Virus record (IMG/VR): IMGVR_UViG_3300011338_000237
Coordinates: 1 to 34,140 of that record
Reading direction: 5' to 3' (one strand)
Length of the DNA stretch: 34,140 nt
From: a virus
Lineage: Duplodnaviria; Caudoviricetes
Shown one piece after another: positions 5,545 through 27,887 of this stretch (its first letter is position 1; the number at the start of each line of letters is the position of its first letter). A program made the position numbers and the translations under genes. The notes below the pieces were generated by a model. That model made no database searches and was not told the origin of the DNA. It saw only the letters and a list, made by a program, of their open reading frames with translations.

Positions 5545-6375
5545 ATGATTTACAGAGATCATTTTCAAAACTACAAAGGGTATGCAATACCTAAAGCACA
5601 GTTGATAATTGCGGACATTCCATACAATCTTGGAAACAACGCCTATGCTTCTAATCCTGCATGGTATAAAGACGGCGATAATTCAAACGGAGAAAGCGCA
5701 TTAGCTGGAAAATCTTTTTTTGATACTGATGAAGATTTTAGACCTGCTGAGTTTATGCACTTTTGCAGCACTATGTTAAAGTCTGAAGGAAAAAAACAAA
5801 AAGTAGAAGGCGAGGCAAGACAAAAGGGGGATGCTCCTTGCATGATTATCTTTTGTGCTTTTGATCAGCAAATGTATTTGATTGAACTTGCCAAACGATA
5901 CGGGCTAAATAACTATATCAATTTGGTTTTCCGTAAAAACTTTTCAGCTCAGGTTCTAAAGGCTAACATGAAAGTAGTTGGAAACTGTGAGTATGGTTTA
6001 ATTCTTTATCGAGATAAATTACCAAAGTTTAGAAACAATGGCAAAATGATTTTTAATTGTATGGACTGGCCGAGGGATGGGGAAAGCGAAAAGATACACC
6101 CTACACAAAAGCCCGTTGAGTTGTTAAAGCGGTTGATCGAAATCTTTACCGATGAAGGCGATGTAGTAATTGATCCATGTGCAGGTAGTGGTTCTACTTT
6201 AGTTGCAGCAGAACGCCTTAATAGAAAGGCTTATGGATTTGAAATAAAGAAAGAATTTTGGACTAAGGCTAATAAGTGGTTAATGCAGGAAAAGCAAATT
6301 AAAAGCGACATTAAAGAATTTGGATTTGCAAAAAGTATAATTGAAAAAGAAGCTCCAACACTTTGGACAGTATAA
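5545..6375 (+). CDS. DNA N6-adenine/N4-cytosine methyltransferase (beta class)
   Basis: DIPY motif IV precedes HPTQKP and DPCAGSGST (motif I), then GFEIK. Confidence 0.9.
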   Translation: MIYRDHFQNYKGYAIPKAQLIIADIPYNLGNNAYASNPAWYKDGDNSNGESALAGKSFFDTDEDFRPAEFMHFCSTMLKSEGKKQKVEGEARQKGDAPCMIIFCAFDQQMYLIELAKRYGLNNYINLVFRKNFSAQVLKANMKVVGNCEYGLILYRDKLPKFRNNGKMIFNCMDWPRDGESEKIHPTQKPVELLKRLIEIFTDEGDVVIDPCAGSGSTLVAAERLNRKAYGFEIKKEFWTKANKWLMQEKQIKSDIKEFGFAKSIIEKEAPTLWTV

Positions 6376-10371: not shown

Positions 10372-10680
10372 ATGCGACAAGGCAGGAATGGTGGTTTGCT
10401 AAAAACGGGAGGCAACAATGGCGGAGGCAGACCTCGCAAGTTGCCCGAACTGGATAAACTCATGGCTAACATTTTGGGCGATGAGAAGAACGGTGTAACC
10501 ATTGCCGAGCAGATCCTTAAAGCCATTGAAAAGAAAGCATTGAAAGGTGATATCAAAGCAGCCGAGATGTTGCTCGATAGAGGCTACGGCAAAGCCAAGC
10601 AGACGATGGATGCTAATGTGAATATGCTTGAGCCATTGGTGATCGTAAGAACAGAATCAGCAAAACCAAAGAACGACTAA
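10372..10680 (+). CDS. terS: Terminase small subunit
   Basis: GGRPRKLPELDKLMANILG...KALKGDIKAAEMLLDRGYGK; immediately upstream of TerL. Confidence 0.75.
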   Translation: MRQGRNGGLLKTGGNNGGGRPRKLPELDKLMANILGDEKNGVTIAEQILKAIEKKALKGDIKAAEMLLDRGYGKAKQTMDANVNMLEPLVIVRTESAKPKND

Positions 10681-10685
10681 AGATT

Positions 10686-12004
10686 ATGCGATTTACGCTA
10701 ACTGAAACCCAAACAACAGCCTACGATATGGCAACCAACGGAGACAACCGAGTTATTGTCTTTGGCGGTGCTATACGAGGCTAACCCCTTACAGCAATGT
10801 GAGGGGGCATGATTAACGAGGCGGTAAAACTTATTGGCTACTGATTACCATCACATACCTTGCTCTTCAATATCCAAGATCGAGGTGGGTTATCATCAGG
10901 CGATCCTTGCCCGATCTGAAGCGTACTACCTTCCCATCCTTCACTTCAATCTTAGCCGATGGCATTGGCGATTATGTCAAGTCTTGGAATCGAGATACCA
11001 ACGTGGTGAGTTTTGCCAATGGATCGGAGTTGATCTTTATGGCTGAATCATTCGATGATGATAAAGACCTCAACAGATTTAAAGGCTTGGAGGTTAACGG
11101 TGCAGGGCTTGATGAGGTGAATGAATTGCAGGAGCAGACATTCTACAAGGTGCAGGAGAGGATCGGCAGTTGGAATCAGGCAATAGGATCACCTCCCATC
11201 GTTTGCCTCGCTACGTGCAACCCTGCAAATAATTGGGTTAAGACTGTGATCTACGAACGCCATAAGGAGGGAACACTACCGGACAAGTGGAAGTTCATCA
11301 CCTCGAAGATTACCGACAATCCCTACATCCCTGCTGAGTATCTTGAATCATTAAAGGAGTTGCCGCCCGTCCAGTACCAAAGATTCGTTGAGGGCGATTG
11401 GGATGTAATGGACGATGTAACCAACCCATTCTTGTACGAGTGGCAAGATGAGAAGCACATCGATGACAGCATTCAACTTAACTCCAACTTGCCCGTCTAT
11501 GTGTCAGTTGATTTCAACATTAACCCGTTATGTGCTTTAGTGATTCAACAGATTAACAGAGGTGCTGTGGTGGTAGATGAGATCAAGATCGACAAGGGCA
11601 GCGTGGATGCGTTCTGCGATGCTGTGCTTGCCTTGAATGTACCGATGGGCTTGATCAGGATCACTGGCGATGCAATGGGCAAAGGTGGCACTGTGCAGCA
11701 GCGAGATAACTCATCTGCCTATACTCAGATCAAACGCAGGCTTGGGTTAACTGATAGCCAATTCCTGATCCCTGCCAATCCAACGCATTACAACAGCCGT
11801 ATCGATTGCAATTCAGCACTGAGGCGGTTAGACATCAGGGCGAACTCCAAACGCTGTAAGGGCTTTGTGTTCGATGCCAAGCAAGTGCAGTGCGATGCCA
11901 ATGGTGGGATCATCAAGACCAACCGAAAAAACATAGCCGAGCGTGCTGACTTTTTAGATTGTTTCCGTTACTTTGTAAACGCAATCCTAAAGCGTTACTT
12001 ATGA
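10686..12004 (+). CDS. terL: Terminase large subunit, discontinuous: 10686-10781 joined to 10823-12004 (425 aa) across a 41-nt gap
   Basis: Joining restores Walker A FGGAIRG|GKT. Downstream segment has Walker B GAGLDEVNE, coupling motif ATCNP and nuclease motif VSVDFN. The ORF-track product from 10907 lacks Walker A. Confidence 0.85.
10775..10822 (+). other. Candidate translational bypass (hop) element in terL
   Basis: ACGAGGC-TAA-CCCCTTACA-GCAA-TGTGAGGGG-GCATGATTA-ACGAGGC: 7-nt direct repeat, stop codon, 9-bp GNRA hairpin. Confidence 0.75.
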
Positions 12005-13373: not shown

Positions 13374-13522
13374 TTGAAGATTTTAAGGCTCAGTTGATGA
13401 GTTTGGCAGCAGGCAACATCGTTGAGTTCAATGAGTTAATGCGTGGCGATGTATCGCTTTATTTGCTTAAATTTGAGCAATTCATAAAGCACCAACGCAA
13501 AGATGGCACAAGCAGAAGTTGA
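13214..13522 (+). CDS. Frameshift-accessed T-like extension of the tail chaperone
   Basis: -1 frame: TGA(13211) then TTT TTT TAC ... LMSLAAGNIVEFNELMRGDVSLYLLKFEQF ... stop 13522, overlapping the tape measure start. Confidence 0.65.
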   Translation, partial: FFYSLGYRSADAITNYVSRYVSELMGVQRGGTAQPNQSLNASGFSPRQRAKKVIEDFKAQLMSLAAGNIVEFNELMRGDVSLYLLKFEQFIKHQRKDGTSRS

Positions 13523-16500
13523 GATAATCTACAAGGCTAACGCTACAAGCCTTGAAGCATCAGTCGGCAAGATTACACAAGTCAATGATGAACTTGTAAA
13601 AGGAGCAGCAGCCACATCGAAAAAGGTTGCCGATGAATTTAAGAAGGTAGGCGGTGCAGCAGCAGCAGCCTTCGGCAGTCAGCAAGTAAAGGCTGCACTG
13701 GATCAACTCAATAAAGAATCAGATAAGCTAACTGCCAATCTAAAGGAATTGCAAAAGGAGCAAGTTCTTTTGGTTGCTTCTGGCAATCGAGTGAGCAAGG
13801 CATATCAAGATAATGCAAAGGCTCAACTCGTTCTAAAGAATCAGATCAGTCAGGTTAATGCCGAGCAGCAGCAGTTGAATCAGACCTTTGAACAAACTGA
13901 AACAAAGCAGAAGTCTTTAACTGGTCAATTAAGATTATTAAAGCAGGAGTTATCATTGCTTGAACAATCAGGTCAAGATAACTCTGATCAATTCAGAAAG
14001 CTAACCATAGAGGCTGCCAAGTTAGAAGATCAGATCGGAGATACAAGGGAGCGAGTGAGGGTGTTATCATCTGACACATTCAAGTTCGATGCTGCGGTTG
14101 GTGCTGTTGGTGCTTTGTCATCAGGCTTTGAAATTGCGCAAGGTGCTGCTGCATTGTTTGGTGAAGAGAATAAGAACCTACAAGAAGCAATCAATAAGAC
14201 TACGGCAGTTACAGCCATCGCCAATGGAGTAAATCAACTTGCTAATCAGATAACTGGTCAAGGACCATTGAAGTTGGCATTGTTAGCAGCAGGGCAGAAA
14301 GCGGTTGCTGTTGCCACTGCGATAAGCACTGGAGCGATCAGTGCATTCAAGGTGGCATTGGCAGCAACGGGGATCGGGCTATTCTTGGGTGCGATTGCAA
14401 TAGTTGTTGATAGATTACAGTCAGCAAGCAAAGCACAAAAGGATTTTAATGCTTCGTTAGTATTGTTAAAATCTGCTGCTGAGAATAGTAAAAAAGCATT
14501 AGAAGATATTGCCAATGCTTCTAAATCTGCTGAGGATAAACTTGCTTTACTTACTAAGAGTAAAACTCAGTTAGACCTTGATCGATCAGCAGCAATTAAA
14601 GAGCGTGAAGAAGTAGCCAAGAAATCAGTAAATGTTGAGATAGGCGCACAAACAAAAGCAGTTCAGGCGTTAAAAGGTTTAAGTCAAGAATACAGAGATT
14701 CACGAATAGCAGATGCAAGGGCAGGAGCAAAAACGGGAGATATCATTGCAAGTGAAGAAACTAAAACACTTGAAAAGAAAATTGCTGAACAAGAAAATCT
14801 AATCGCTGAATCACAAAGAACTGCTACAAAGATTATTATAGATTCACAAAACGCTATATCAAATATTAACAAACAGTTTGATGAAGCTGAAAGAATTGAG
14901 CGTGAAGAGAAAGAAAAGGAAGCAGCAAAGAAAGCATTAGAGATTAGCAACAAAGCAGCACAAGATCGATTAAAGATCGTTGAAGAAACAATCCGAAAAG
15001 AGATACTAATCGATGGCGAATCACAGCAGGAGCGAATTGATTTGGCTAAAAACTTAGCAGATCAGGAAAAGTTAAATGCTAAACAAACGATTGAGAACGC
15101 CACGCTAAGGGCAGCAACCATCGCAAGGATCGAGCAGGAACTTGCCAACAACATCGAAGCAATCAAACTTGATGAGCGTAAGAAGGCAAATGAAACTCGT
15201 ATTCTGGAACTTGAAGCAGTACAAGCAGCAGGCAAGTTAGAGATCGATCAGGCTATTGAACTGGCTAAGGCAAAAGCAGAAGCGGAGAAGATCGCAGCAG
15301 GCGGTGAAACCGATCCTGCCAAGAGAAAAGCATTGGAGGCTAAGGCAGAAGCAGATGGTGAAGCAGCCATCAAGAAGATCAAGGCTGATGGATTCCAAGC
15401 CGATGTTGAACTGTTCACAGCCAGATTAAAGTTACAGCAGGAACTTGGTGATTTTAGTATAGCAACACAAGAGAGGTTAATTGATATTGAGTTTAAGGGC
15501 AAGGAGGCTGCATTAAAAGCATCAGCCGATCAAACCGTAGCAGGACAAAAGAAGTTAGCACAAGACTTGCTAAAGCTTGAAGCCGATAAGCAAAAGGCAT
15601 TATTGGATATAAAGCAAAATGCAGCCGATAAAGAGATTGAACTTGACATTCTTAGGATTCAAACTTTGGAGGCATTAAACAAGGCTACATTGGATGATAA
15701 GAAGCAGTTAATCAATGACGAGTTAAAGCTAAAGATCAATGCCATAGATCGAGAGTTAGTAGCGGAAGATGAGAAGGAAAAGAAGCGAGCATTGGCAAGG
15801 GCAAAGGCTAATAAAGAGATTGAGGCTTTAGATGCCGAATCAAAGCAGAAGCAAATTGATGACATTCTTGATATTTCCAATGCAACTGCTGATGCCTTTG
15901 GTGCTATACTTGAACTTCAAAAGCAAGTATCTGAAAATAGAATTGCGGAAATTGAGCAGGTTCGAGATACAGAGATTGCAGCCATTGAGAAATCAACAGA
16001 TTCAGAACGTAAAAAGCAGGACAAGATCGCAGCAGCAAACCTACGGGCGCAGCAAAAGATCAAAGTAGAAAAGACAAGACAAGCACAAGCAGATAAAGCA
16101 CTGGCGGTTTTTCAGGCTATCATTGGAACTGCTGCTGCTGTTGCATCGGCAAAGACAATACCTTTGAAAGTTCTTGCAGGAATTATTGGAGCAGCACAGT
16201 TGGCTATCATTCTATCTCAGCCAATCCCTAAATTCAAAAAGGGTGGTATGGTTGGAGGCAAAAGCCATGAGGCAGGCGGTACAATGATCGAGGCGGAGAA
16301 AGGCGAGTTCGTGGTTAACAAGTCATCAGTGGCACGTCATCGGGATGCTTTGGATGCGATGAATAGATCATCTGTTGCATTTAAGAAGTACATTGATGAT
16401 CGCTATGTTCGCCCTGCATTGATGGACTTCGCCAATAAGAACAAAGGTGCTAACGTAACAGTTAACGCATCGCTCAACAGCAAGTCAATGGAGAAAGAGA

Positions 16501-16583
16501 TTAAGGGGCTGCGTAAGGATCTTAAAGGAAGATCAACAGTGGTTAACATTAACGCATCAGATTCACGCTACCAATGGCAGTAG
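13503..16583 (+). CDS. Tail tape measure protein
   Basis: 1026 aa, Ala/Lys/Glu-rich helical protein with hydrophobic segments (ALAATGIGLFLGAIA) and C-terminal FKKGGMVGGKSHEAGG...EAEKGEFVVN motif. Confidence 0.85.
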   Translation: MAQAEVEIIYKANATSLEASVGKITQVNDELVKGAAATSKKVADEFKKVGGAAAAAFGSQQVKAALDQLNKESDKLTANLKELQKEQVLLVASGNRVSKAYQDNAKAQLVLKNQISQVNAEQQQLNQTFEQTETKQKSLTGQLRLLKQELSLLEQSGQDNSDQFRKLTIEAAKLEDQIGDTRERVRVLSSDTFKFDAAVGAVGALSSGFEIAQGAAALFGEENKNLQEAINKTTAVTAIANGVNQLANQITGQGPLKLALLAAGQKAVAVATAISTGAISAFKVALAATGIGLFLGAIAIVVDRLQSASKAQKDFNASLVLLKSAAENSKKALEDIANASKSAEDKLALLTKSKTQLDLDRSAAIKEREEVAKKSVNVEIGAQTKAVQALKGLSQEYRDSRIADARAGAKTGDIIASEETKTLEKKIAEQENLIAESQRTATKIIIDSQNAISNINKQFDEAERIEREEKEKEAAKKALEISNKAAQDRLKIVEETIRKEILIDGESQQERIDLAKNLADQEKLNAKQTIENATLRAATIARIEQELANNIEAIKLDERKKANETRILELEAVQAAGKLEIDQAIELAKAKAEAEKIAAGGETDPAKRKALEAKAEADGEAAIKKIKADGFQADVELFTARLKLQQELGDFSIATQERLIDIEFKGKEAALKASADQTVAGQKKLAQDLLKLEADKQKALLDIKQNAADKEIELDILRIQTLEALNKATLDDKKQLINDELKLKINAIDRELVAEDEKEKKRALARAKANKEIEALDAESKQKQIDDILDISNATADAFGAILELQKQVSENRIAEIEQVRDTEIAAIEKSTDSERKKQDKIAAANLRAQQKIKVEKTRQAQADKALAVFQAIIGTAAAVASAKTIPLKVLAGIIGAAQLAIILSQPIPKFKKGGMVGGKSHEAGGTMIEAEKGEFVVNKSSVARHRDALDAMNRSSVAFKKYIDDRYVRPALMDFANKNKGANVTVNASLNSKSMEKEIKGLRKDLKGRSTVVNINASDSRYQWQ

Positions 16584-18613
16584 AGATTAAATTCCTGATC
16601 GATGGATTAGATCGAGGTCAGCCATTAAACCCTGAATCATTCGGGCTAACAATTAACGAGGACACTACAATCGGAGCGAGAGTAGTATCATTCGATAATG
16701 AATTGATTTTTGATGGTGAAGTATTCAATTACTTGTATGCAAAACTGCAACAGTCAGGATATTGTGAATTGGTTAATTGCACCGTTCAATATCGCTGCAC
16801 ATCGGGTGCTTGGCTGAATTTAGTTGATGGCTATATCATCGCCACTGAATCAATCTTCCTTATCGATAAATGTCAAGTCAAGACTAAGGTTTATGATGAA
16901 ACATTTAGCACCAAGATAAACAACAACAAGAGCATCCCATTCTCGATGCGGTTAACAACCTCAAAGAACGGCACACCGATAACACCGCCAACACAGCGGA
17001 GCATCTTTATGTTTAACCCTGCTGATGGAACTATTGACGGAACTGCTTATGGCTATGCTATTTATGATGTGTTTGATCACTTGGTTAATTGTATGAGCGA
17101 TGGCTTGGTTGACTTTGGCTCTAACTTTTTTGCCTACGGCACAACAGGAGAAACACCTTGCTACACAAACGGTCTATCAATACGATCATATCAGAATGTT
17201 GAGGTACTGGCTACCTTTGAAGAGATATACCAAGCGATGCGAAACAAGTGCAATCTTGGGATGGGATTTGAGAAGCAAGCCAACGGCAGACCATTGTTGC
17301 GCATTGAGCCAATCGCATACTTTCAGCAAGGCAATGCAATCGTTAATCTCTACGATCAATCAGATATTGAAATGCGGTTTGATACTGCGAGGCTTTACGC
17401 ATCAGTGAATATGGGATCAAACCCAACACTGCAAGCATCAGCCTGCGATTCTGGAGCAACACCTTGCACCTTTATTCAAACTCCATTTAGGGCTTTCCAA
17501 GATGAAACCTTTGGCTTTGCAGGGAAGTGTAATACAACCAACGTATTAAACATTGTAAGCAATGACATTATCTTTGATACCAACGTATTTGAAGATATCA
17601 TTCGATTTGGCAATCAATCATATGACAGGGATAATGCTGTTATTCAATGCGATATCAACTTAGGCATTGGCAGCAATATTACATTCACTGCGATTGAATA
17701 TGATATTTATGGGATAGGTCAAACGCTTTACAATGGTATCTATACCAATCAGAATGTTTCGACTAATTGGCTCAATGGTTATCCAAGTTCTTTACTTTCA
17801 TTTTTTCAGCCGTTTTTGGTTTCGGACACTGAGGTATCAGTTCAAAATCCTTCAACCTTTTTTAATCAGATCGAGGTTGATGATTTACCAGTAACGCTGT
17901 TCGAGTTTTCTGCGCATTACACTATTTGGAATACTATCTTAGACAATCCGAATGGTATCTTTAACATTGACACTTATACCGTTCCATTTGCAGGGATCTA
18001 TACTGTCAATGCAGGCTTAGTATTTGAAGCCTTTAGAGATGGCGGTTCACCTTTCCCTATTGATACTGTTGCTTGGGGTAGAAATGCAAGAGTTGTAATA
18101 AGACAATTAGATCCAGATGGTAATGAACTTGCAAGTTTTTTCGCAGGAGTTAATCAAGCCGATTCAAGAGAAAATCTTTGGGTAGAGGCAAACAATAAAC
18201 TATTCGTTTGCAATGTTGGTGATCAATTAGTGGTCGATTATAGAATCATAAGAGCATCAGGTACAGGATTTTTAACTTTACAAAGACTTCTTGCCACTGC
18301 AATAGCTGAATCACCTGAGGGAGTATTTGAAGAGCATACATCTTACTTTACTATTGAAGGAACTAACTTTGTGCCGCCCGATCTTGATCCAGTTGATATT
18401 GATGAAGTGCAGACATATCTTTACAAGTTCAAAAGACCTTTAACGATGCAAGAGATTACTGCCATTGCAGCAGAAACATCAAAGCCAATTAAACTTGGAA
18501 AACAAGATGATAGCCTTGCGGTTATCGATACCTACATCAAGACAATAAACATTGAATCAATAATGCGCAAGACAGCGCAGTTTGAATTGAGATCAAATAA
18601 ACTTCTGCCATGA
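16574..18613 (+). CDS. Tail tip / hub structural protein
   Basis: 679-aa beta-rich protein immediately after the tape measure; contains YTVPFAGIYTV. Confidence 0.6.
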   Translation: MAVEIKFLIDGLDRGQPLNPESFGLTINEDTTIGARVVSFDNELIFDGEVFNYLYAKLQQSGYCELVNCTVQYRCTSGAWLNLVDGYIIATESIFLIDKCQVKTKVYDETFSTKINNNKSIPFSMRLTTSKNGTPITPPTQRSIFMFNPADGTIDGTAYGYAIYDVFDHLVNCMSDGLVDFGSNFFAYGTTGETPCYTNGLSIRSYQNVEVLATFEEIYQAMRNKCNLGMGFEKQANGRPLLRIEPIAYFQQGNAIVNLYDQSDIEMRFDTARLYASVNMGSNPTLQASACDSGATPCTFIQTPFRAFQDETFGFAGKCNTTNVLNIVSNDIIFDTNVFEDIIRFGNQSYDRDNAVIQCDINLGIGSNITFTAIEYDIYGIGQTLYNGIYTNQNVSTNWLNGYPSSLLSFFQPFLVSDTEVSVQNPSTFFNQIEVDDLPVTLFEFSAHYTIWNTILDNPNGIFNIDTYTVPFAGIYTVNAGLVFEAFRDGGSPFPIDTVAWGRNARVVIRQLDPDGNELASFFAGVNQADSRENLWVEANNKLFVCNVGDQLVVDYRIIRASGTGFLTLQRLLATAIAESPEGVFEEHTSYFTIEGTNFVPPDLDPVDIDEVQTYLYKFKRPLTMQEITAIAAETSKPIKLGKQDDSLAVIDTYIKTINIESIMRKTAQFELRSNKLLP

Positions 18614-20244
18614 GTTACGAATCAATACCTAATCAGCCAATAGTATTCAAGCCAAGCAATCAGCTATCTTCTGACTGCGGTTGCGGTGGTGATGGCTTCA
18701 AGCAACTTGTCGATTATGATGATGAGGTATTCTTTCAGATAGAATCATCGCCCTGCAATGAAACGGGAACTTATGGCAGTGCTACCACTGTGCAGGCTTG
18801 GACAGAAAGCGGATCGACCATAACATCAACGGCAGCGACTTCATTAGGCTTCTTTAGTCAGACATTCTATCCGCAAGATATGTATGGCGTGATCAGGGTG
18901 GTGGTGCAAGTATCTGACATCATTGGATCATTGGTGGTGATTGTATCAGGAGCATCGAGCCAAACGATTACAGCAGCAGGCACGCATACACTTTACTTCG
19001 ACACTGCTCACCTACTGACTAACAGCAGCATCTCGGTAACAATATCGGGCAATACCTTTATTGGTAGCTTTGTATTTGTTAGCTTGGTGGGTGTGCCTAA
19101 TGGTGGCTTGTTCTTGGGCGTAGTGGATGCTGATGATGTGAATACCATTATCGCAAGGATCGATCCTACGATCACCACTATCGATCAATATCTTACGGCA
19201 GGCTTCTCGATGGCTGATGTTGCATTAACGGCAGGATGCTATCGGTTAGCGATTGCGGAGTATTGCTCCAATCTTTGTGGTCAATACTTCATCGCCAATC
19301 CTTACTTCAATCCAACAAGATCAGGAGTGCCAAGTTGGAGTTCAGTCATTGGCACTGGCGTAACTAATTGGACAATCGATCCTAACCTTGCATCAATAGA
19401 ATTAGGAACGGGCGAGAGTGCCTACCTTGAATCAGTTACCACAGTTTGCGAGGGAGTTGAGTATTCTATTGAGATCACTGTGGATGCCATTAGCAACGCT
19501 CGTGTGCGACTTTCAGTGGCAGGGAATATCTACGGCTCACCAATCACAACAGCAGGCACTACAACGATTGTATTCACTCCAACGGCATCAGGTGAGGTTA
19601 GTGTATTAGGATCACAGATCGGAGGCTTACCATCGCTTATCGAGATCAGCAAGGTAACACTGCGAGCAATCTACACTTCAGTTCAATATGACCGATACAG
19701 CGATGTGATCTCAGTTGGTGAATACAGTGGATGCGAATACTTTAAGTTGGAAGGCTGCAATGGCGAGAATCAATTTGGCTTTGCATTCTATGGCTCATCA
19801 TTTCTGCCATCGATCCGCTTGGAAGGTAGAAGATACCAACCGCAATATGACACCGATGCAGACCTTTTCCGGTACTCATCAGGAAGGTGGCACGCATCGT
19901 ATGTGGATCGCAAGAAACGCCATACGTATTACTTCGGCAGATTGCCTGAGTACGTGCTTGACTTCCTTTCGATCTTGGTGTACTTCGATAACTTTTACGT
20001 TAACGGTGAAACCCATTTCCCTGCTGAAGATTCATTCCCTGAAGTTGAATATAACGATGCCGATGATCTTGGTTCGATCTCGATTGACCTAATCAGAAAG
20101 ACGGGCATAGTTCGCAAGACTGTATGTGTTGGCGTGGATGCAGATTGCCTGCCATCGATCCTCAACTTGGATGAGCCGTTCTTGCTTTATCAGGATGATA
20201 ACCGAATCATTACGCAAGACCTCATTAATTTATATCAAGAATAA
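18610..20244 (+). CDS. Tail structural protein with carbohydrate-binding-like beta domains and C-terminal LLYQDD..IITQD motif
   Basis: IANPYFN...W...W CBM-like segments; position in the tail module. Confidence 0.6.
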   Translation: MSYESIPNQPIVFKPSNQLSSDCGCGGDGFKQLVDYDDEVFFQIESSPCNETGTYGSATTVQAWTESGSTITSTAATSLGFFSQTFYPQDMYGVIRVVVQVSDIIGSLVVIVSGASSQTITAAGTHTLYFDTAHLLTNSSISVTISGNTFIGSFVFVSLVGVPNGGLFLGVVDADDVNTIIARIDPTITTIDQYLTAGFSMADVALTAGCYRLAIAEYCSNLCGQYFIANPYFNPTRSGVPSWSSVIGTGVTNWTIDPNLASIELGTGESAYLESVTTVCEGVEYSIEITVDAISNARVRLSVAGNIYGSPITTAGTTTIVFTPTASGEVSVLGSQIGGLPSLIEISKVTLRAIYTSVQYDRYSDVISVGEYSGCEYFKLEGCNGENQFGFAFYGSSFLPSIRLEGRRYQPQYDTDADLFRYSSGRWHASYVDRKKRHTYYFGRLPEYVLDFLSILVYFDNFYVNGETHFPAEDSFPEVEYNDADDLGSISIDLIRKTGIVRKTVCVGVDADCLPSILNLDEPFLLYQDDNRIITQDLINLYQE

Positions 20245-20249
20245 TTTTG

Positions 20250-20257
20250 TAAATTTG
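20250..20257 (+). promoter_or_regulatory. -7 box TAAATTTG upstream of the tail tube gene
   Basis: Matches TAnnTTTG. Confidence 0.6.
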
Positions 20258-20274
20258 CAATCATCATCATAGAC

Positions 20275-20311
20275 GTAGGACTTCTGATGCCATCCTATAC
20301 AATCGGCATCA
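20275..20311 (+). ncRNA. H-type pseudoknot in the tail-tube 5' UTR
   Basis: S1 GTAGGA/TCCTAT and S2 TGATGCC/GGCATCA, interleaved. Confidence 0.6.
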
Positions 20312-20333
20312 TAACAATAAACTCTACAAAACT

Positions 20334-20873
20334 ATGGGATGCGTATCATATTGCGATTCCTCATTGCTCGATCACAACTTAGTCAACTGTAACGACTACA
20401 AGCTTGGCGGTGTATCAGCAATCTTAGTCGGAGCGTGTGGAACGGAATTAGTTGATCCTTCGGATGCTGTTGAAGTACAAGCCTTGATCGATGCTGGCAC
20501 TGCCAAGATCATTGAGGATATTCGCTTCGCCCTTCCTGCTGGCTCACCAGTTACCGTTGATTCACCTATCGGCTGCGGAACATCAATCAGAATTAACGAA
20601 GATCGTACTGCTACTCTTTACGATGCTAACGTAACTGATGAAAACAATACTTTTTGGAATGATGTGAATAATAGACGCATCGCTTGGATTTTGGCTTATG
20701 CTTGCGATTCAGGTAAGGTGATCTATATCAATCCTCCAGTTGGTATTACTACATCGGCTAACTTTATCATCCCTGAGCAGAACAACGAACTTCAGCGTTA
20801 TGAAGTAACTTTCTCTTGGAGAGATAAGGAGATTCCTTCACAGTATGCTGCTCCTGCGGGCATCTTCGGATAA
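20334..20873 (+). CDS. Putative major tail (tube) protein
   Basis: 179 aa, C..Y..GGVSAILV start, beta-rich; has its own promoter and a structured leader shared with the capsid gene. Confidence 0.6.
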   Translation: MGCVSYCDSSLLDHNLVNCNDYKLGGVSAILVGACGTELVDPSDAVEVQALIDAGTAKIIEDIRFALPAGSPVTVDSPIGCGTSIRINEDRTATLYDANVTDENNTFWNDVNNRRIAWILAYACDSGKVIYINPPVGITTSANFIIPEQNNELQRYEVTFSWRDKEIPSQYAAPAGIFG

Positions 20874-21823
20874 TGACAGAGGCAACACAACCACAAAGCC
20901 AAAGCACTGCCTCTATCGGGGTGGTGCTTATGGCGTTTGGTAAGCCTCAGTATTATTGGGCTGCCTACAACTTAGCCTATTCAATTAAACGATTCAATAA
21001 GGATGTTAAGATTGCTTGCCTGATCGAATCAAGGCAGGATGCAGATAAGTATTGCGGTGATCTTTACGAGGTCATTGATACCTTCATCGAGATTCAGCAC
21101 GAGCATCTATACACAAACAAGAAATTAGATCCTGCAAAGGCTAAAGTTCACCTTTACGATTACTTGCCTTTTGATAAGAACATCTATCTTGATGTTGATG
21201 CAGTTGCACTAAAGGACATCCAACCAATGATTGACGAGTTGGTTAATCTTGGCAAGCCTTACGCAAGCCATACGGTAGGCTATCACACAATCGATAAAGG
21301 TCGCAAGATTGATTCGATGCAGTGGGCTTGGGCTGATGATATTTGGCAGCATTACAAGTTTGATGAAACAACGGTATTGCCTGCCATCAATAGTTCAGTT
21401 CAATACATCGAGAAGTCATCTAAGGCATTGGCACTCTATAAGATTGCACAAGACTACCTACTTAATAACCCGATCCCATTAAACAAGCTAAGAATGAAGT
21501 GGGGCGGTGGTCAGCCTGATGAGTTATACATGAACTGTGCATTGGCAAAGTTAGGCATTGATCCTGCGGTTACTGAAGTTGGCAACAACGGCAGCGCAGA
21601 GATCGGCTATATTCACTTCGCAATGGTCAGAGGCTTATCCTTTGGCGATGTTACACAAGCATACTACTTCCAATCTTACTACGGTGGCAAGGGCTTTACT
21701 CCAACATTCTATATCGACTGGATGGATCGGATGCTCAAGTCATGGATGAAAGAAGAAGGGAAACAACATAAATATTTTATTCACCGAATCACAGATAACA
21801 AGCATGCCGATCCAAGAAGATAA
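20873..21823 (+). CDS. Glycosyltransferase (GT-A fold, GT8-like)
   Basis: LAYSIK, AKVHLYDYLPFDKNIYLDVDA (DxD), INSSV, GQPDELY, IHF motifs. Confidence 0.75.
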   Translation: MTEATQPQSQSTASIGVVLMAFGKPQYYWAAYNLAYSIKRFNKDVKIACLIESRQDADKYCGDLYEVIDTFIEIQHEHLYTNKKLDPAKAKVHLYDYLPFDKNIYLDVDAVALKDIQPMIDELVNLGKPYASHTVGYHTIDKGRKIDSMQWAWADDIWQHYKFDETTVLPAINSSVQYIEKSSKALALYKIAQDYLLNNPIPLNKLRMKWGGGQPDELYMNCALAKLGIDPAVTEVGNNGSAEIGYIHFAMVRGLSFGDVTQAYYFQSYYGGKGFTPTFYIDWMDRMLKSWMKEEGKQHKYFIHRITDNKHADPRR

Positions 21824-22370
21824 CAAGCCTAAGAAGGGCAGACCTAAAAAGATAGTAACGACACCAACATTCAACGAGGTTGCAAGACATGGTTGGAATA
21901 GTGAAGTTGATGTTGCTGATTTTCTTGCAGCCTTAATCTCAATGACGGGAGCGAAGCGAGTATTGGAGATCGGAGTGTTTGAGGGTGAAACATCCATCAA
22001 GATGATTCAGGCTATGCCTAATGGTAGCTACTATGTAGGCAATGACATTAACAATTACCGGAAGCACGTTCTGAAAAAGTCGGGCGTGGTGGTTGATCTA
22101 TTGATGGGAATGTCAATCAATGTTATGAGCCAATTCGAGGATGAGTTTTTCGATCTGATCTTTGTTGATGGCGATCATTCATGGGCTAACATATTACCAG
22201 AGTTCAAAGAAGTTGAGCGTATCATTTCAAAGAATGGCGTTATCGCTTACCACGATGCGATCCATATTCCTGATGTTGCTGAGTTGATGAAATACGCAAA
22301 GCACTATAAGTACAATGTAATCACGCTAAACACCAGCGAGGGCAGGGGCTTGGCATTAATCCAACGATAA
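21804..22370 (+). CDS. Class I SAM-dependent methyltransferase (Methyltransf_24-like)
   Basis: VLEIGVFEGETS, FDLIFVDGDHS, GVIAYHD. Confidence 0.85.
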   Translation: MPIQEDNKPKKGRPKKIVTTPTFNEVARHGWNSEVDVADFLAALISMTGAKRVLEIGVFEGETSIKMIQAMPNGSYYVGNDINNYRKHVLKKSGVVVDLLMGMSINVMSQFEDEFFDLIFVDGDHSWANILPEFKEVERIISKNGVIAYHDAIHIPDVAELMKYAKHYKYNVITLNTSEGRGLALIQR

Positions 22371-22371
22371 G

Positions 22372-22449
22372 ATGAAACCGAACTATTGCAGAACGAGGAG
22401 TTGTGGCTCAAACATCATAGACAAACCATCTACTAAAGCAGTTGCGTAA
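22372..22449 (+). CDS. 25-aa small ORF translationally coupled to the portal
   Basis: MKPNYCRTRSCGSNIIDKPSTKAVA* fills the gap exactly; TAATG overlap with the portal start. Confidence 0.45.
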   Translation: MKPNYCRTRSCGSNIIDKPSTKAVA

Positions 22450-24359
22450 TGGCACTATCTACCGAAGAGATCAATAAGATCGTTAACCGATTCGCCAAGC
22501 TTCACAAGCAATGGGAAAATCAGTCGACAAGATCACCAATCAATCCAATCACGAAGGAGCGAGTGGGCGTTACTCAATATCCTGAGTATTGGGAGGGCTA
22601 CAACTACGCTGCTAAGATGTACGATTCAATCCTGCCTCATGCAAGACCTGACATCTATCCATCGCATCTGTTGAGCGTTCGTGCGCCAAACCAAACCGAT
22701 GCTCAGGCAGCCTATATCAAAGCCAACTACAAGCCTACAACCTTGTCGGTGTTTGAAGATTTTAAGGCTACCATCAGCAGGGCGTTTGCCGATCAGAATT
22801 GGTCGATCAGATATGCTCAGGAAGTTGAGCCGATCTTCGGTGAAGATACCTTCGAGCGATACGTGAACATGGAGATCGAGAAGTTTGGCTCACTTGAAAT
22901 GTTCGTTAAGAACTTAGTGCCAACATTGAAGTTGATTGATCCAAACGGTATCATTGCCATCGAGCCTGAGTACAGCGAAGATATGGAGGATGATGAGAAT
23001 GGCGAGAGGGTAATCAGCAATGAGTTGATCCGCCCGATGCCAGAGTATTACTCCTGCAAGCGCATTGTCGGTCAAGATTACGGGCATTATTATCTTGTAA
23101 TCAGCGATGACTATACAGACATTAAGGTTGGCAGCAAAACTGAGAAGTCAGGCATTGTCTTAGAACTTTACGACAGTGAAGCGATCTATAAGATTTATCA
23201 GGTAGGCAAGAAGTCGGACATGGAGTTCTCCGAGCCAGTGCTTTACTACCAACATAATCTTGGCTACGTGCCATGTCATAAGTTAGAAGGTACACCGCAG
23301 ATGATCGGCAACAGCATTGCTTTTCAATCCCCGTTTATTACCGCAGTGCCTTTATTGGATCAAGTGGTGCTTGATGAATCGTACTTGCAAATCAGCAAGG
23401 CTACATCAGCATTTCCGTTTATGGTTGCATTAGGCGAGATTTGCGAGTTCATTGATCGGGAAGGTAACAAATGCCAAGACGGGCAGATATTCGATGCAAT
23501 CAATGGAGGCTATCGCACTTGTGGCAGTTGCTCAGGATCGGGGGTTAAATCAAGATTCTCTCCTACCGGTATGCTATTGATCAAGCCTAAGACTTCATTG
23601 AGTGAGGGCGATAGTTCTTTGAGTGGTGAATACTTGAAGTTCGTATCACCTCCGATGGACACGCTAAACTTTCTGCGTACTGAGATTGAACAACAGATGG
23701 CTAAGTCGAGAAGGATCTTGCACCTACCATCATCAGACGAATCAGGAACGATTGGCGAGGCTTCTACGGCAACGGGATCGCTTAACAAGCTAAGATCATT
23801 ATACGCTTTCATTAAGCCTATCTCAGATCAGATATTCAGTCTTTATGAGTTCTGCCTTGTAACGATGGGCAAGATGCGCTATGGTGAAAACTTTGGAGGT
23901 GTTAACCTTGTCTATCCAACATCATTCGACATCAGCACGCCATCGGATTACTTGGCTGTGATCAGCGAAGGTGTGAAAGCAGGAGTGCCGCCATCGATTA
24001 CCTTCTCGAATGTTTACAACTACATCCGAGCCATCCATTACACTGATGAAGAAACCAGTGCCATCTACGATCTTATCATCAATGCCGATGAGTTACTGCT
24101 TATGAGCAGTGCTGATATTGTAGCAAGGGTGGCAAATGGAACGGTTGAGAAGTGGCAGGATGTACTTCACCATTCAGCACCTCAGTTGGTGATGGAGTTA
24201 ATCAGGGAGTTTATTCCAACGGGCGATGTTCAGAAGTTCACTGACCTACCAATGAATGAGCAAGTGATCGCCCTGCGTAACTTGGCAGCAGCGAAGATCG
24301 CTGAAACCTTAGATCCTATCCAACAAGCACAGCAAGACCTATTGAATGGCATCGTTTGA
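22449..24359 (+). CDS. Portal protein
   Basis: 636 aa with HNLGYVP motif and a CGSCSGSG zinc-finger-like insertion; precedes minor head, scaffold and capsid genes. Confidence 0.8.
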   Translation: MALSTEEINKIVNRFAKLHKQWENQSTRSPINPITKERVGVTQYPEYWEGYNYAAKMYDSILPHARPDIYPSHLLSVRAPNQTDAQAAYIKANYKPTTLSVFEDFKATISRAFADQNWSIRYAQEVEPIFGEDTFERYVNMEIEKFGSLEMFVKNLVPTLKLIDPNGIIAIEPEYSEDMEDDENGERVISNELIRPMPEYYSCKRIVGQDYGHYYLVISDDYTDIKVGSKTEKSGIVLELYDSEAIYKIYQVGKKSDMEFSEPVLYYQHNLGYVPCHKLEGTPQMIGNSIAFQSPFITAVPLLDQVVLDESYLQISKATSAFPFMVALGEICEFIDREGNKCQDGQIFDAINGGYRTCGSCSGSGVKSRFSPTGMLLIKPKTSLSEGDSSLSGEYLKFVSPPMDTLNFLRTEIEQQMAKSRRILHLPSSDESGTIGEASTATGSLNKLRSLYAFIKPISDQIFSLYEFCLVTMGKMRYGENFGGVNLVYPTSFDISTPSDYLAVISEGVKAGVPPSITFSNVYNYIRAIHYTDEETSAIYDLIINADELLLMSSADIVARVANGTVEKWQDVLHHSAPQLVMELIREFIPTGDVQKFTDLPMNEQVIALRNLAAAKIAETLDPIQQAQQDLLNGIV

Positions 24360-25257
24360 TGAACTTGTAAAGCAGAAGATTAAACTCTTTGAGCAAACTC
24401 CTGAGAGGCTTGCAACGGCAGCAGTTAAAACTCAGGCAGAGGCGTGGCGAACAATCCGCCCTTTGCTTGATGAAATGGATGTGGATGCTAATGGTAACAT
24501 CGAACAGACCGAGAATAACATCAGGCGCATCGGTACGATAGCGGATCAACTTCGCATTGTTTTGGGTGGTGATGACTATCGGCAGGCGGTCAAAGCCTTT
24601 TTAGATTCCATCGACAAAGGGGTGGTGCTGACTAATGAAATTGCTCAGACTTTTGAATCGGCATTCGAGCCAACAGAAGCACAGAAGCAACTGCTAAGAA
24701 TATCAAAGCAGAACGCCATCAATGCCTTTTATGGTAGTGGCTTAGATCAGAGATTCACTCAACCATTCTTGGAGCAGCTAACTACCAACATCGCTGCACG
24801 TGCGCCACTAAGAGAAGCAGTGGTGGCATTGGAAGGTATTGTGATCGGAACGGAGGCGAATGATGGAAGGCTATTGGCTAACATCAAGACCACTGCAACA
24901 ACAGCGCAGGCGGTGGCAGACCGATCATATTCCGCAGCTATCAATCAGGAGTTAGGGGTTGAGTGGTTTGAATATCTTGGAGGCGAGATCGACACTACAA
25001 GACCGTTCTGCGCTAATCGGGAGAATGGCATCTATCACCGTTTGGAGATTGAGGCTTGGGGCGATGGCAAGAATAGCGGAGGCTTGAATGATATTAGAGA
25101 TGGCACTTGGGCAGGGCGAATCGATGGAACTGATAGCAAGTCGATATTCACTTTTGTTGGAGGTTGGAATTGCAGACATTACCTGATCCCGATCCCTGAT
25201 CGTAAAGTGCCAGAATCAGTTAAGGCAAGAGCGAGGGCTGAGGGCTTCATCGACTGA
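24346..25257 (+). CDS. Minor head protein (Mu gpF / SPP1 gp7-like)
   Basis: EYLGG...TRPFC...GGWNCRHYLIP motif, directly after the portal. Confidence 0.8.
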   Translation: MASFDELVKQKIKLFEQTPERLATAAVKTQAEAWRTIRPLLDEMDVDANGNIEQTENNIRRIGTIADQLRIVLGGDDYRQAVKAFLDSIDKGVVLTNEIAQTFESAFEPTEAQKQLLRISKQNAINAFYGSGLDQRFTQPFLEQLTTNIAARAPLREAVVALEGIVIGTEANDGRLLANIKTTATTAQAVADRSYSAAINQELGVEWFEYLGGEIDTTRPFCANRENGIYHRLEIEAWGDGKNSGGLNDIRDGTWAGRIDGTDSKSIFTFVGGWNCRHYLIPIPDRKVPESVKARARAEGFID

Positions 25258-25285
25258 TTGCAGAATCAAATAATTACTATCTTTG
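25258..25285 (+). promoter_or_regulatory. Promoter TTGCAGAATCAAA...TATCTTTG
   Basis: TTG at 25258-25260 and -7 box at 25278-25285. Confidence 0.65.
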
Positions 25286-25292
25286 TGGGAGA

Positions 25293-25499
25293 ATGAAATT
25301 CATAATACTTGCCGATGGTAGTATAGTGCGTGCGACTGAATTGGTTGCTGACTACCTTATTAAGAAAGGCGGTAGAGAGTGCAAATTGAAACCAATAGAA
25401 ACACCTAATTTATATGGCAATGAAAGCAGAGGAAGCACTGGAGTTAGTGAACTTCCTAAACCTAAGCGAAGCAGAAAGCCTCGAAGAAGCGAAGGATAA
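25293..25499 (+). CDS. Small hypothetical protein
   Basis: First ATG after the promoter; overlaps the scaffold start. Confidence 0.5.
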   Translation: MKFIILADGSIVRATELVADYLIKKGGRECKLKPIETPNLYGNESRGSTGVSELPKPKRSRKPRRSEG

Positions 25500-26235
25500 A
25501 TTTCAAGATCAGTGGGTTAACTCTAAGGAGTTGAATGATAAGATCGGCAAGATCAACGGCACGATCCATCAGGCAGCCAAGCGAGCATTTGAACCGTTCG
25601 GAGTTGTATTGACTGAGGATGATTTCAAAGACAAGAAAGCGCAGGATGTGATTCGCCAAGCAGCAGATCGGGCAAGAGAAAACTACGAGAAGCAGCAAGA
25701 GGAGTGGCAGCAACGAGCATCTCAAACGGGATCGGATGAACTTGTCAAGGAGTGGGAAAAGAAGCATAAGACACTTGAAAAGAAACTCACTGAGATCGAC
25801 AATGCAAGACAAGAGGCGATCAACCAGTTCGATCAATTCAAGATCAAGGTGGTAGAGGAGCAGAAGCAAGCTAAGATCACTAACACCTTTGAGCGTGAAC
25901 TATCTGCCATCAAGCTTGATCCAACGGTGAACGAATACACCATCAAAGGATTCAAGGCTACCATTGGCGAGAAGTATGCAATCGACATCGAAGAGGATGG
26001 GGCAATGATCGTAAAGGACAAGACAAGCGGTGAGCGATTGAAGAGCAAAGACAAAGCAGGATCATTCTTGAACTTGTCAGATGTGCTATTGCAGGAAGCA
26101 GCAGCGGCAGGGATCATAATGAAGAACCCATCAGCAGGGCAGCGAGTGATAAGGCAAGGTGCTGTAATTCCACAACTCGAACCGCAGTCAGATAAAAAGA
26201 TGAGAGGTATCAATCCAAGATTCTACACAAAATAA
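25414..26235 (+). CDS. Capsid scaffolding protein
   Basis: Highly charged coiled-coil protein between the minor head and capsid genes. Confidence 0.65.
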   Translation: MAMKAEEALELVNFLNLSEAESLEEAKDKFQDQWVNSKELNDKIGKINGTIHQAAKRAFEPFGVVLTEDDFKDKKAQDVIRQAADRARENYEKQQEEWQQRASQTGSDELVKEWEKKHKTLEKKLTEIDNARQEAINQFDQFKIKVVEEQKQAKITNTFERELSAIKLDPTVNEYTIKGFKATIGEKYAIDIEEDGAMIVKDKTSGERLKSKDKAGSFLNLSDVLLQEAAAAGIIMKNPSAGQRVIRQGAVIPQLEPQSDKKMRGINPRFYTK

Positions 26236-26247
26236 AAACGATCTGCC

Positions 26248-26520
26248 ATGCCAATGTATGAAGGTTTCAATGTAACATCATCTGATCGCTCAGGTAAGAA
26301 ATACAAGGCAGTAGATGATGACGGTAACGAGATCCATTTTGGTGCTGAAGGGTATCGAATCAATCCCGGCACTGATGCAGGGAATTCATACTGCGCTCGG
26401 AGCAATGGCATTCCATCACCGAGAGGATCGGCAAATTGGTGGGCGAGGCAGTTGTGGAGTTGTGAGGGCAAGCGGTCAGTGAGCGACAAACCTTTTTTTG
26501 GCAAAATCGATCTACCTTAA
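26248..26520 (+). CDS. Small viral protein (IHFGAEGY...SYCARS...SANWWAR..W type)
   Basis: Motif recalled from phage head modules; function unknown. Confidence 0.7.
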   Translation: MPMYEGFNVTSSDRSGKKYKAVDDDGNEIHFGAEGYRINPGTDAGNSYCARSNGIPSPRGSANWWARQLWSCEGKRSVSDKPFFGKIDLP

Positions 26521-26553
26521 TAACTTTGTAACTCAGTCGTTTTGGGTTAGACT

Positions 26554-26596
26554 AAAAGGGGAGTTGGGCAGCAATGCTCGCTCCCTTTTTGTTTTT
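26554..26596 (+). terminator. Intrinsic terminator
   Basis: AAAAGGGGAG-T-TGGGCA-GCAA-TGCTCG-CTCCCTTTTT-GTTTTT. Confidence 0.8.
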
Positions 26597-26608
26597 AATA
26601 TAATTGAC

Positions 26609-26616
26609 TATCTTTG
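26609..26616 (+). promoter_or_regulatory. -7 box TATCTTTG upstream of the capsid gene
   Basis: Matches TAnnTTTG. Confidence 0.65.
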
Positions 26617-26631
26617 TGGCACTATGATGAT

Positions 26632-26692
26632 GTAGTGAGCCATCACTTATAATGGCAATGTAGGCGAATGCAGCAAGCCTATTAATCGCTGC
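26632..26692 (+). ncRNA. Tandem H-type pseudoknots in the capsid 5' UTR
   Basis: PK1: AGTG/CACT with GCCAT/ATGGC. PK2: GTAGGC/GCCTAT with GCAGC/GCTGC. Confidence 0.6.
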
Positions 26693-26714
26693 TAACTACA
26701 CAATTCAAATCATC

Positions 26715-27755
26715 ATGTCAATTTCAAGAATACTATCTGAATGCCCTAATGTGCAAATGTCGCTGGGCGAACTATTCATTGAGGTAGGTCAGCGTGAGCA
26801 ACTTCCTTTTTTGGAGTTCTTGCTTTCACCTGAAAACTCAAAATTAATCCGCACTGAAGTTGCTCCTGGCAACGGTAAGTTAAAGACTGTTCAAGCACGT
26901 TGGATTCAGCGTTTGCCTGAAACAGAAGTAGAAGAGGGTGCTGATATCCTTACTTGTACATCTACCAACACATACGGAGATTCAACAACAACTTACACAG
27001 TTGATGTTACTGATACCTATGTTGCTTCTCAACTAATCAATGCTGCTGACATTGCTCGCCACTGTCAAGAAAACAGCCGTTATGTTCTTGAGAGCGTTAT
27101 GCGTTTGATGGATGTAATTGATCGCAAGGTTGCTTCTGCTGCTGCTGTTCAAGCGGTTGCTCAAATCGGTAATTGGGGAACTGATGTAGAAGGTTTCTAC
27201 ACTGTAACTGGCGATTGCTTGGAGATCGAAACAATCAACGGCAATGAGCCTAATCCATTCGCTATCGCTGACATTCAGCAAGCAACAAGAATGGCGAACT
27301 ACCCTGCTGCTCCGATTGCTTTCGGTGGTGCTGCAATGCAGCGTTACGCTAATGCGATGGCTGCTGGCTGCTGCACTCAGTACGGTATCGACTTGCTTGC
27401 TATCACTCAGCAAAACGGTTTTGGATTCGCTTACGATTCTCGCTTGGCTGCTGCACAAGGATCTCAATCTAAAGCGTTGGTTACAACAGCAGGAGCAATC
27501 CAGTGGTTGTCATTCAACTTGGCAGATTGGAATACTGGCATCACTCCAACGGCAGGATCAAACTACTCTAAGACTTTGGTGTTTACACCAGCAGGAGTTC
27601 CAGTTGATCTTACGATGAAGGATGATTGCAGTAACTTGTCTATTGTATTGACTACAACTGGCAAGATCGTAACGCTTCCAACTGACATCTACGAGGCAGG
27701 CGATAAGTTCTCAGGTGTGAACTACGTAAACTGCGTATCTATCGTAAACCCGTAA
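26715..27755 (+). CDS. Major capsid protein
   Basis: 346 aa after the scaffold, highly-expressed-type codon bias (GCT/ACT/GTT), own promoter and terminator. Confidence 0.8.
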   Translation: MSISRILSECPNVQMSLGELFIEVGQREQLPFLEFLLSPENSKLIRTEVAPGNGKLKTVQARWIQRLPETEVEEGADILTCTSTNTYGDSTTTYTVDVTDTYVASQLINAADIARHCQENSRYVLESVMRLMDVIDRKVASAAAVQAVAQIGNWGTDVEGFYTVTGDCLEIETINGNEPNPFAIADIQQATRMANYPAAPIAFGGAAMQRYANAMAAGCCTQYGIDLLAITQQNGFGFAYDSRLAAAQGSQSKALVTTAGAIQWLSFNLADWNTGITPTAGSNYSKTLVFTPAGVPVDLTMKDDCSNLSIVLTTTGKIVTLPTDIYEAGDKFSGVNYVNCVSIVNP

Positions 27756-27835
27756 TCGGGTTAACAGCCTTGATCTCGCAAGACGATCAGGATTTGTTAA
27801 CCCAAGACGGAGTTGATTATCTATCAACCGAATAA
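27746..27835 (+). other. -1 frameshift signal (A-AAC-CCG + hairpin 27758-27803) and 27-aa capsid C-terminal extension
   Basis: The -1 frame reads VIGLTALISQDDQDLLTQDGVDYLSTE* and ends just before the terminator. Confidence 0.7.
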
Positions 27836-27863
27836 GAGGGGGGCTTTATGCCTCCCTTTTTTT
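27836..27863 (+). terminator. Intrinsic terminator after the capsid extension
   Basis: GAGGGGGGC-TTTAT-GCCTCCC-TTTTTTT; its tail overlaps a TATCTTTG promoter box (27863-27870). Confidence 0.8.
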
Positions 27864-27887
27864 ATCTTTGTAAAAAATAATCATCCG

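Follow-up and report, generated by a model that had tools for sequence, protein, structure and literature searches.

The large terminase gene (terL) of an uncultured freshwater tailed phage (Duplodnaviria; Caudoviricetes) is cut within its Walker A motif by 41 nt, and we propose that full-length TerL is made by programmed translational bypassing of this gap, which belongs to a cassette linked to a putative homing endonuclease. The DNA analysed, referred to below as the window, is the whole of IMG/VR record IMGVR_UViG_3300011338_000237 (34,140 nt). From sequence comparisons we assign this proposal a probability of about 0.82. Programmed bypassing had already been put forward in a preliminary description of this DNA and remains the best explanation, which neither the contigs that cross the gap, nor the relatives, nor the unspliced contigs could refute; however, the codon pair, the adjacent stop, the target duplication and the purpose attached to the hop have had to be corrected.

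The split terL gene and inserts at the same codon in relatives

The 34 kb genome is complete, with direct terminal repeats, and contains a single terL match; a second copy of the gene was considered and is not present. All features described here lie on the plus strand. Frame 1 of terL (10686..10784) runs from the ATG at 10686 for 32 codons and ends CGA GGC TAA (10776-10784), whereas frame 2 (10817..12004) comprises 395 codons that encode the remaining part of Walker A, Walker B and the nuclease domain, with matches to Terminase_3, Terminase_6N and the PHROG for the terminase large subunit. Two separate frames are required here for one essential protein, and no start codon is found near the beginning of the second. 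Skipping 41 nt joins 30 upstream residues to the 395 to give a product of 425 residues, also the length of most intact close homologues. The coordinates, codons, stop, hairpin, 41-nt skip and 425-residue TerL of the preliminary description were all confirmed on rechecking.

The insert is real. Single contigs from X1 and X6 (possible source samples) and from X12 (a second study) cross it without a gap, the X12 contig differing from the window at nine positions, every one outside the insert. These insert-spanning DNA contigs of two studies, together with the same-codon inserts in relatives, exclude an assembly error. The metagenomes concerned are river, lake, aquatic and sediment ones. No joint corresponding to a precise 41-nt deletion was seen in five DNA and three RNA-type assemblies, X10 and X20 not spanning the gap.

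The likely take-off codon is CGA at 10776..10778 (Arg31), preceded by an invariant ATA, and the likely landing codon is CGA at 10817..10819, where the family as a whole has CGA in 23, CGT in 19 and CGC in 11 of 53 genes. In this register the coding gap occupies 10779..10819. A second possible take-off, on the glycine codon before the in-frame stop (GGC TAA, 10779..10784; GGY-TAR in three of 29 distinct inserts), would place it at 10782..10822. The dicodon CGA GGC at 10817-22 opens the 395-codon frame and both registers yield an identical protein; in the GGC register a premature GGC at 10806-08 precedes the landing site. Within the gap lie a hairpin (10785..10806) of 9 bp with a GNRA cap (GCAA loop), lying 12 nt from the start of ATA, and an A/T-rich spacer (10807..10816) that has no CGH triplet and includes a TAA in the landing frame (10814-16). 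Among the distinct inserts only one of 29 has a CGH triplet 3′ of the stem. GGC is a common codon in this genome, where TGG and GGC are normally used.

A search of viral contigs found 273 relatives, and among the best 80 of these related loci 22 carry an insert after ATA CGA, at the same codon. Four pattern scans enlarged the set (chance hits removed: 13/62, 7/55, 8/27 and 2/7), and at ≥70% identity the resulting 194 loci represented 107 distinct genes, 53 with the insert, always at the same codon, and 54 without. ATA CGA precedes it in 53/53 alleles. The 29 distinct inserts measure 39 nt (n=11), 40 nt (n=1, a single contig) or 41 nt (n=17), spanning all three frames, and every one stops the first frame, at the next codon in eight, the second in seven and the eighth in 14. 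A further insert, of 44 nt, occurs in L207, which lies at a contig end and is absent from the 107-gene set. Insert-bearing and insert-less terL genes (L053 and L057) also occur together on one 52-kb contig, which probably represents two related genomes joined in assembly.

A single inosine tRNA decodes CGA, CGC and CGU, and in 53/53 alleles the hop would lead from CGA to CGA, CGT or CGC, codons readable by one tRNA. No AGR or CGG landing codon was found in inserts of the window family with broad patterns that allowed other Ile and Arg codons; as AGR is used in only five of 54 insert-less genes, its absence has little power. Since all inserts begin after ATA CGA and end at CGA, CGT or CGC, and the position of the stop varies, the conserved pair is Arg/Arg and an adjacent stop is optional. 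The preliminary description was correct that a matched pair exists, but family-wide this pair is CGA 10776-78/CGA 10817-19 and not GGC/GGC, and the adjacent stop that it counted as part of the architecture occupies the next codon in only eight of the 29 distinct inserts.

Two stem-loops and the proposed hop

The gap hairpin at 10785-10806 is both the minimum-free-energy and the centroid structure, and is the only GNRA-capped stem of at least 9 bp in the window. Unusual folding stability is seen for 10686-10850 (z −5.24) but not for a 91-nt stretch by itself (z −1.29). In 23 aligned gap hairpins, excluding L087 with its longer stem, 95.2% of cells are paired and five of ten pairs have changed on both sides, and 0/500 shuffles matched these cell counts; the G-U pairs and GNRA loops are RNA features. 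Alignment of terL from relatives thus bears out what had been anticipated of a functional element, namely the same position, a matched codon pair and a covarying hairpin. At eight loci (L230, L231, L240, L246-248, L251 and L253) this 22-nt hairpin occurs with a U-run behind it in intergenic, terminator-like positions, and a U-tailed element of this kind may be the source of the gap hairpin. An intrinsic terminator in terL itself was rejected: the hairpin is U-tailed in these eight intergenic matches, but the terL copy has no U-run.

A second stem-loop, overlooked in the preliminary description, is predicted within the coding sequence at 10718..10782 (z −3.35), with a core at 10728-10774 and a loop at 10748-10755. 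This 5′ stem, of approximately 20 bp, ends at the take-off codon, and its 3′ arm contains ATA CGA. At z ≤ −2 it is found in 30/30 insert alleles compared with 0/49 insert-less alleles. Its alignment comprises 17 pairs, 95.9% paired, of which three have changed on both sides; one of these links a synonymous Ala/Gly pair and another an Asp/Asn/Tyr codon with a Val codon. The ATA is invariant in 35/35 representatives because ATA CGA sits in this 3′ arm, single-codon use being found in 0/17 other invariant Ile columns. GGCT at 10779-10782 lengthens the same stem, which probably explains why TGG or GGC follows CGA. As regards a nascent-peptide stimulator like that of the T4 family, the upstream residues vary, and this variation is confounded with the RNA stem. 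No barrier structure was detected downstream (mean z 0.13).

The spacing of both elements has precedents. The loop of the 5′ stem starts 28 nt before the take-off codon, compared with 26 nt for the 5′ stem-loop of T4, which has been proposed to push the ribosome during bypassing (bioRxiv 10.1101/2024.12.09.627546). Stem-loops 11-12 nt from the P-site codon hinder A-site binding and translocation in dnaX and human immunodeficiency virus (HIV) (PMC7282821, PMC8861025), a distance matched by the 12 nt between the gap hairpin and the first base of ATA.

On this basis we propose the following path for the ribosome. With ATA in the P site and CGA in the A site, the gap hairpin would arrive at the mRNA entry and slow the ribosome, whereupon the peptidyl-tRNA-Arg, weakly paired on CGA, would release. 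The mRNA leaving the ribosome would then zip into the 5′ stem-loop, burying the take-off codon and pushing the ribosome forward, until the tRNA could re-pair on the CGA 41 nt downstream and decoding continue with GGC GGT AAA. Ribosomes that fail to hop would end at the TAA at 10782 and release a 32-residue peptide.

Mobility, distant terminases and alternative explanations

A NUMOD4-HNH gene (NUMOD4, HNH_3) lies between terS and terL in 26/50 insert alleles and in 0/51 insert-less alleles, three alleles of each kind being too short to be counted. The other 24 insert alleles lack it. One relative (L201) has a window-type insert together with the HNH gene, whereas the window has the insert and no HNH gene, and none of the cassette type is found elsewhere in the window at E 0.01. 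What the window does contain is an exchanged block (10652..10816), apparently a cassette remnant, comprising the terS end, the gap and, between them, a replacement terL 5′ end. The terS-like gene (10372..10680; DUF5681) lies directly upstream of terL and has its last codons within this foreign block. Relative to the insert-less allele L001, the window shows 94% identity on both flanks of the block and 61-70% within it; contigs from X12 and X14, samples in which both alleles are present, depart from the window at 10648 and rejoin it at 10817, with different letters between. In L001 and other insert-less alleles a 41-codon hydrophobic open reading frame lies between terS and terL, replaced in the window by the foreign block. 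On a tree of 75 downstream sequences the insert is scattered, requiring 22 changes against a shuffled-label mean of 25.2.

We infer from these patterns that a mobile block consisting of the NUMOD4-HNH gene, the replacement terL 5′ end and the gap homes into insert-less alleles, that the gap would destroy the site, within the conserved codons of Walker A, that the putative nuclease recognizes, and that the window's lineage may later have lost the HNH gene. Walker A is altered in two intact terL genes, to QGGTNAAKT in L287, which has a NUMOD4-HNH neighbour, and to GGAIRGSKT in L365; these changes are possibly an escape from nuclease cutting by point change and not by a gap. The earlier suggestion that the hop limits or times synthesis of the packaging motor is unsupported: genomes 94% identical on both flanks lack the insert, alleles of the two kinds share samples, and a homing-type HNH gene is associated with the insert. 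A regulatory role, though conceivable, is doubtful, and a selfish insertion that is tolerated fits better.

Purifying selection on the insert alleles equals that on intact ones. The ratio of non-synonymous to synonymous substitution rates (dN/dS) downstream of the gap is 0.037 for insert alleles (155 pairs, 38 genes) and 0.040 for insert-less alleles (264 pairs, 51 genes), and over the upstream 29 codons it is 0.16 and 0.14 respectively. Of the 53 insert alleles, 42 have a full downstream frame; in eight it runs off the contig end and in three it has an early stop.

Gaps at Walker A are not confined to the window family. A scan with the hairpin alone gave 35 matches, nine on new contigs, and placed the hairpin in the Walker A of a PBSX-type terL; two distant terL groups, that of the PBSX-type lead and that of a 43%-identical terL, have Walker A gaps in 16/80 and 18/80 loci. 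We tabulated 31 rows of 14 gap types, leaving out three identical copies, and the long downstream frame is retained in 31/31. Take-off and landing codons share their first two bases in 25/31 rows (10/14 types) although the amino acid varies between Arg, Ser, Gly and Ala, the one-box pairs being TCT/TCA, GGA/GGA, GGT/GGA, GGG/GGA, GCC/GCA, CGT/CGA and CGC/CGT. After CGT or CGC take-offs a stop is always next, whereas after CGA there is often none. Gaps of 37-42 nt contain a hairpin, mostly 6 nt past the take-off codon, whereas those of 11, 10, 6 and 4 nt do not. The 5′ stem accompanies 7/9 PBSX-type gaps compared with 12/47 controls. A NUMOD4-HNH neighbour is found at 6/16 distant GGAIR gaps against 0/52 controls, and at 0/15 PBSX-type gaps, where the search covered this nuclease type.

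Several individual loci deserve description. PBSX-type genes L267, L274, L279-281, L297/298, L302 and L314 have hairpin gaps of 37-40 nt located at three adjacent codons of Walker A (Ser, Ala and Gly), mostly with a 5′ stem-loop and without a NUMOD4-HNH neighbour. One terL group presents an apparent erosion series, with 39 nt in L401/L402/L410/L412, 11 nt in L407/L411, 10 nt in L404 and 6 nt in L414/L424; in the last two Walker A reads CGC TGA CGT, an in-frame 6-nt gap and a candidate natural stop hop. L361, L362, L368 and L369 have 4-nt gaps after ATA CGA and land on AGC or GGC, with the first base unmatched; either a short hop or, with one residue added, a +1 shift could account for this. 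In L361 an HNH gene lies upstream.

Taken together, we lean, with some reserve, towards a widespread and as yet unpublished class of elements at the Walker A of terminases over which bacterial ribosomes hop; homing endonucleases would spread them, and take-off would need neither a stop nor a hungry codon. A roadblock hairpin on one side and a zippering 5′ stem on the other would squeeze a weakly paired tRNA, the gap would erode from 41 to 11, 10 and 6 nt (the last an in-frame stop hop), and hopping would be both evolvable and common as a way to rescue essential phage genes.

A number of observations weigh against bypassing or weaken its support. A sense codon follows CGA in 21/29 inserts, so take-off must compete with decoding, and the L087 insert has a premature CGA after the stem. 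Two-sided pair changes by themselves do not exceed those of shuffles (172 and 89 of 500, the former for the gap hairpin), and the covariation counts are tied to kinship and so are not independent. Six distant rows (4/14 types) combine a CGA take-off with landing on AGT, AGA, AGC or GGC, where a hop needs a first-base mismatch, and the GGT/GGA and GCC/GCA pairs require two-of-three pairing; the 5′ stem accompanies only 2/12 distant GGAIR gaps, compared with 7/48 controls. Early downstream stops number 3/53 in insert and 0/54 in insert-less alleles (p 0.12), and because the alleles recombine at the landing codon the downstream dN/dS is no independent proof that insert alleles work. The contigs of a close relative from two metatranscriptome libraries, which keep the insert and show no splice joint, may be DNA and may drop rare forms.

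Excision of the insert from the mRNA as a micro-intron, either by self-splicing or through some unknown nuclease and ligase, the two stems setting the cut sites, would account for the two abutting conserved helices at the junction, and a single register (after CG) in the GGAIR family mends even the unmatched AGT and AGA cases. We nevertheless consider it improbable. From family to family the junction letters (CG, TC, GG and GC) change along with the amino acid encoded, gaps of 4-11 nt occupy the same site, the joint is absent from the two RNA-library assemblies that cross the insert, and there is no RNA ligase among the scanned proteins of the window. At 41 nt and with no Rfam match at E ≤ 5, the insert is not identified as a group I or II intron or other Rfam element. 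A junction that varies with the amino acid, together with gaps of 6-11 nt, fits tRNA re-pairing and not splicing; to our knowledge, gaps of 11, 10 and 6 nt are below the size of any known intron. Insert alleles might instead be dead and parasitic, the HNH cassette homing while packaging relies on TerL from co-infecting intact phages or on recombination repair, as the sharing of samples by the two kinds of allele, the frequent exchange and the three early stops would allow. This is very unlikely given that purifying selection acts on the upstream 29 codons, which move together with the insert, that the codon match, the spacing and both hairpins are maintained, that 24/50 insert alleles have lost the HNH gene and could spread no further, and that in X1 and X6, where the insert allele is present, no contig over the gap lacks the insert.

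The preliminary description had also offered a recent inactivating insertion with a 7-nt target duplication, which is contradicted by the finding that the insert is old, diverged and covarying and that the 7-nt repeat is peculiar to the window. That direct repeat flanks the hairpin and would suit a skip at the level of DNA or transcription, by slipped-strand deletion between repeats in some molecules or by RNA polymerase jumping the hairpin. To this we give as little credence as to dead, parasitic alleles: the repeat is just 2-3 nt in most relatives, third-position variation obeys codon logic and the DNA and RNA-type assemblies lack the precise deletion joint. Least probable of all is that the insert is decoded by readthrough or simple frameshifting, adding approximately 13 residues to the P-loop, or that two separate peptides assemble: the 39-nt forms are in frame and the 4-nt gaps could be +1 shifts, but insert lengths cover three frames, many with stops in both relevant frames, the insert-less relatives examined keep the Walker A length (two with a residue change at GK), and the second peptide would lack a start codon near the landing site.

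Genome setting and known bypass systems

Elsewhere in the window, 13503-31959 is a structural region in which a portal and a tail fibre were recognized, but among its scanned open reading frames no major capsid protein was recognized by Pfam or PHROGs; an O-methyltransferase-like gene (21804-22370) lies amid the structural genes, and an N6/N4 DNA methylase at 5545-6375. There are no tRNA genes in the window. Shine–Dalgarno motifs are scarce before the start codons of this phage, and such scarcity points to Bacteroidota, suggesting a host in this phylum. A protein search returned zero host names, and a genome scan two binned contigs, both insert-less. No cultured relative was found, the best match being Flavobacterium phage 11b at 32% identity.

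In open-access papers and preprints, as far as their accessible text extends, the only case of terL bypassing found was that of Streptomyces phage Hau3 (PMC10732093, PMC5009743); subscription journals and preprint supplements lie beyond this scope and could hold related cases. Further papers checked for bypassing are not about terL. Natural stop hops were, according to a passage of a 2016 review, not known to that date (PMC5009743). Efficient bacterial bypassing has so far been represented by a single gene family, that of T4 gene 60, and a single candidate, the Hau3 terminase. The terL cassette supplies 29 natural variants, sister alleles with and without the gap, and a series of lengths and codons in distant terL genes. 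With these, a 170-nt reporter could test what moves the sliding ribosome forward, whether take-off needs a stop, how large a mismatch landing tolerates and whether stop hops exist in nature. It suggests a third route, besides introns and inteins, by which homing endonucleases occupy a conserved active-site codon. The gap also probably explains truncated terL calls annotated as ‘hypothetical protein’, entries of 321-386 residues probably being such cases.

The mitochondrial byps of Magnusiomyces capitatus, reportedly described by Lang et al. in 2014, are the first system to compare. They resemble the terL gaps in size class (27-55 nt), in having a hairpin in the insert and in tolerating imperfect take-off and landing with two-of-three pairing. 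As far as the accessible accounts go, byps occupy yeast mitochondrial genes and have an unused codon in the A site, whereas here a bacterial ribosome would hop at one site in one phage gene family, the A-site codon is usually an ordinary sense codon (TGG and GGC being in normal use) and there is a link to an HNH gene. The stem-loops of dnaX and HIV share a 9-11-bp hairpin 11-12 nt from the P-site codon (PMC7282821, PMC8861025), but terL has no slippery heptamer and the outcome needed is a 41-nt jump, not a −1 shift. In phiHau3, a Streptomyces phage, the large terminase is likewise split by short non-coding blocks at conserved motifs, with 10-nt UUA bypasses, of which one junction was shown by mass spectrometry in E. 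coli, and a proposed 5′ stem-loop; that terminase belongs to another terL family, uses the rare UUA codon and has a proposed regulatory role, and neither a gap hairpin nor an HNH link is reported in the accessible part of the paper (PMC10732093).

The closest parallel is T4 gene 60, with a 50-nt bypass and the HNH cassette MobA, in which the gap gives protection from nicking and is often retained after the nuclease has gone (bioRxiv 10.1101/2022.08.31.505936). A 5′ stem-loop upstream of take-off is common to both, as is a linked HNH gene moving with the gap, here a putative nuclease found in 26/50 against 0/51 alleles and absent from the window. In the available descriptions, the T4 insertion is in the topoisomerase large-subunit gene at Gly46/Asp45, whereas here it is in terL at an Arg codon. 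In T4 a stop or hungry codon directly follows take-off, but here a stop does so in 8/29 inserts and the window has GGC. The T4 take-off codon lies in the 5′ arm of the take-off stem-loop, whereas the gap hairpin of terL begins 6 nt after CGA and CGA itself lies in the 3′ arm of the upstream stem. T4 also has a mini Shine–Dalgarno motif approximately 6 nt before the landing site; the terL gaps have a G-run whose end is 7-9 nt upstream of the landing codon, but this run forms the hairpin's 3′ arm, and in L371 the polarity is reversed. The terL cassette would work like T4 gene 60 yet fails three of its defining features, and is therefore a variant of that system and not a member of it.
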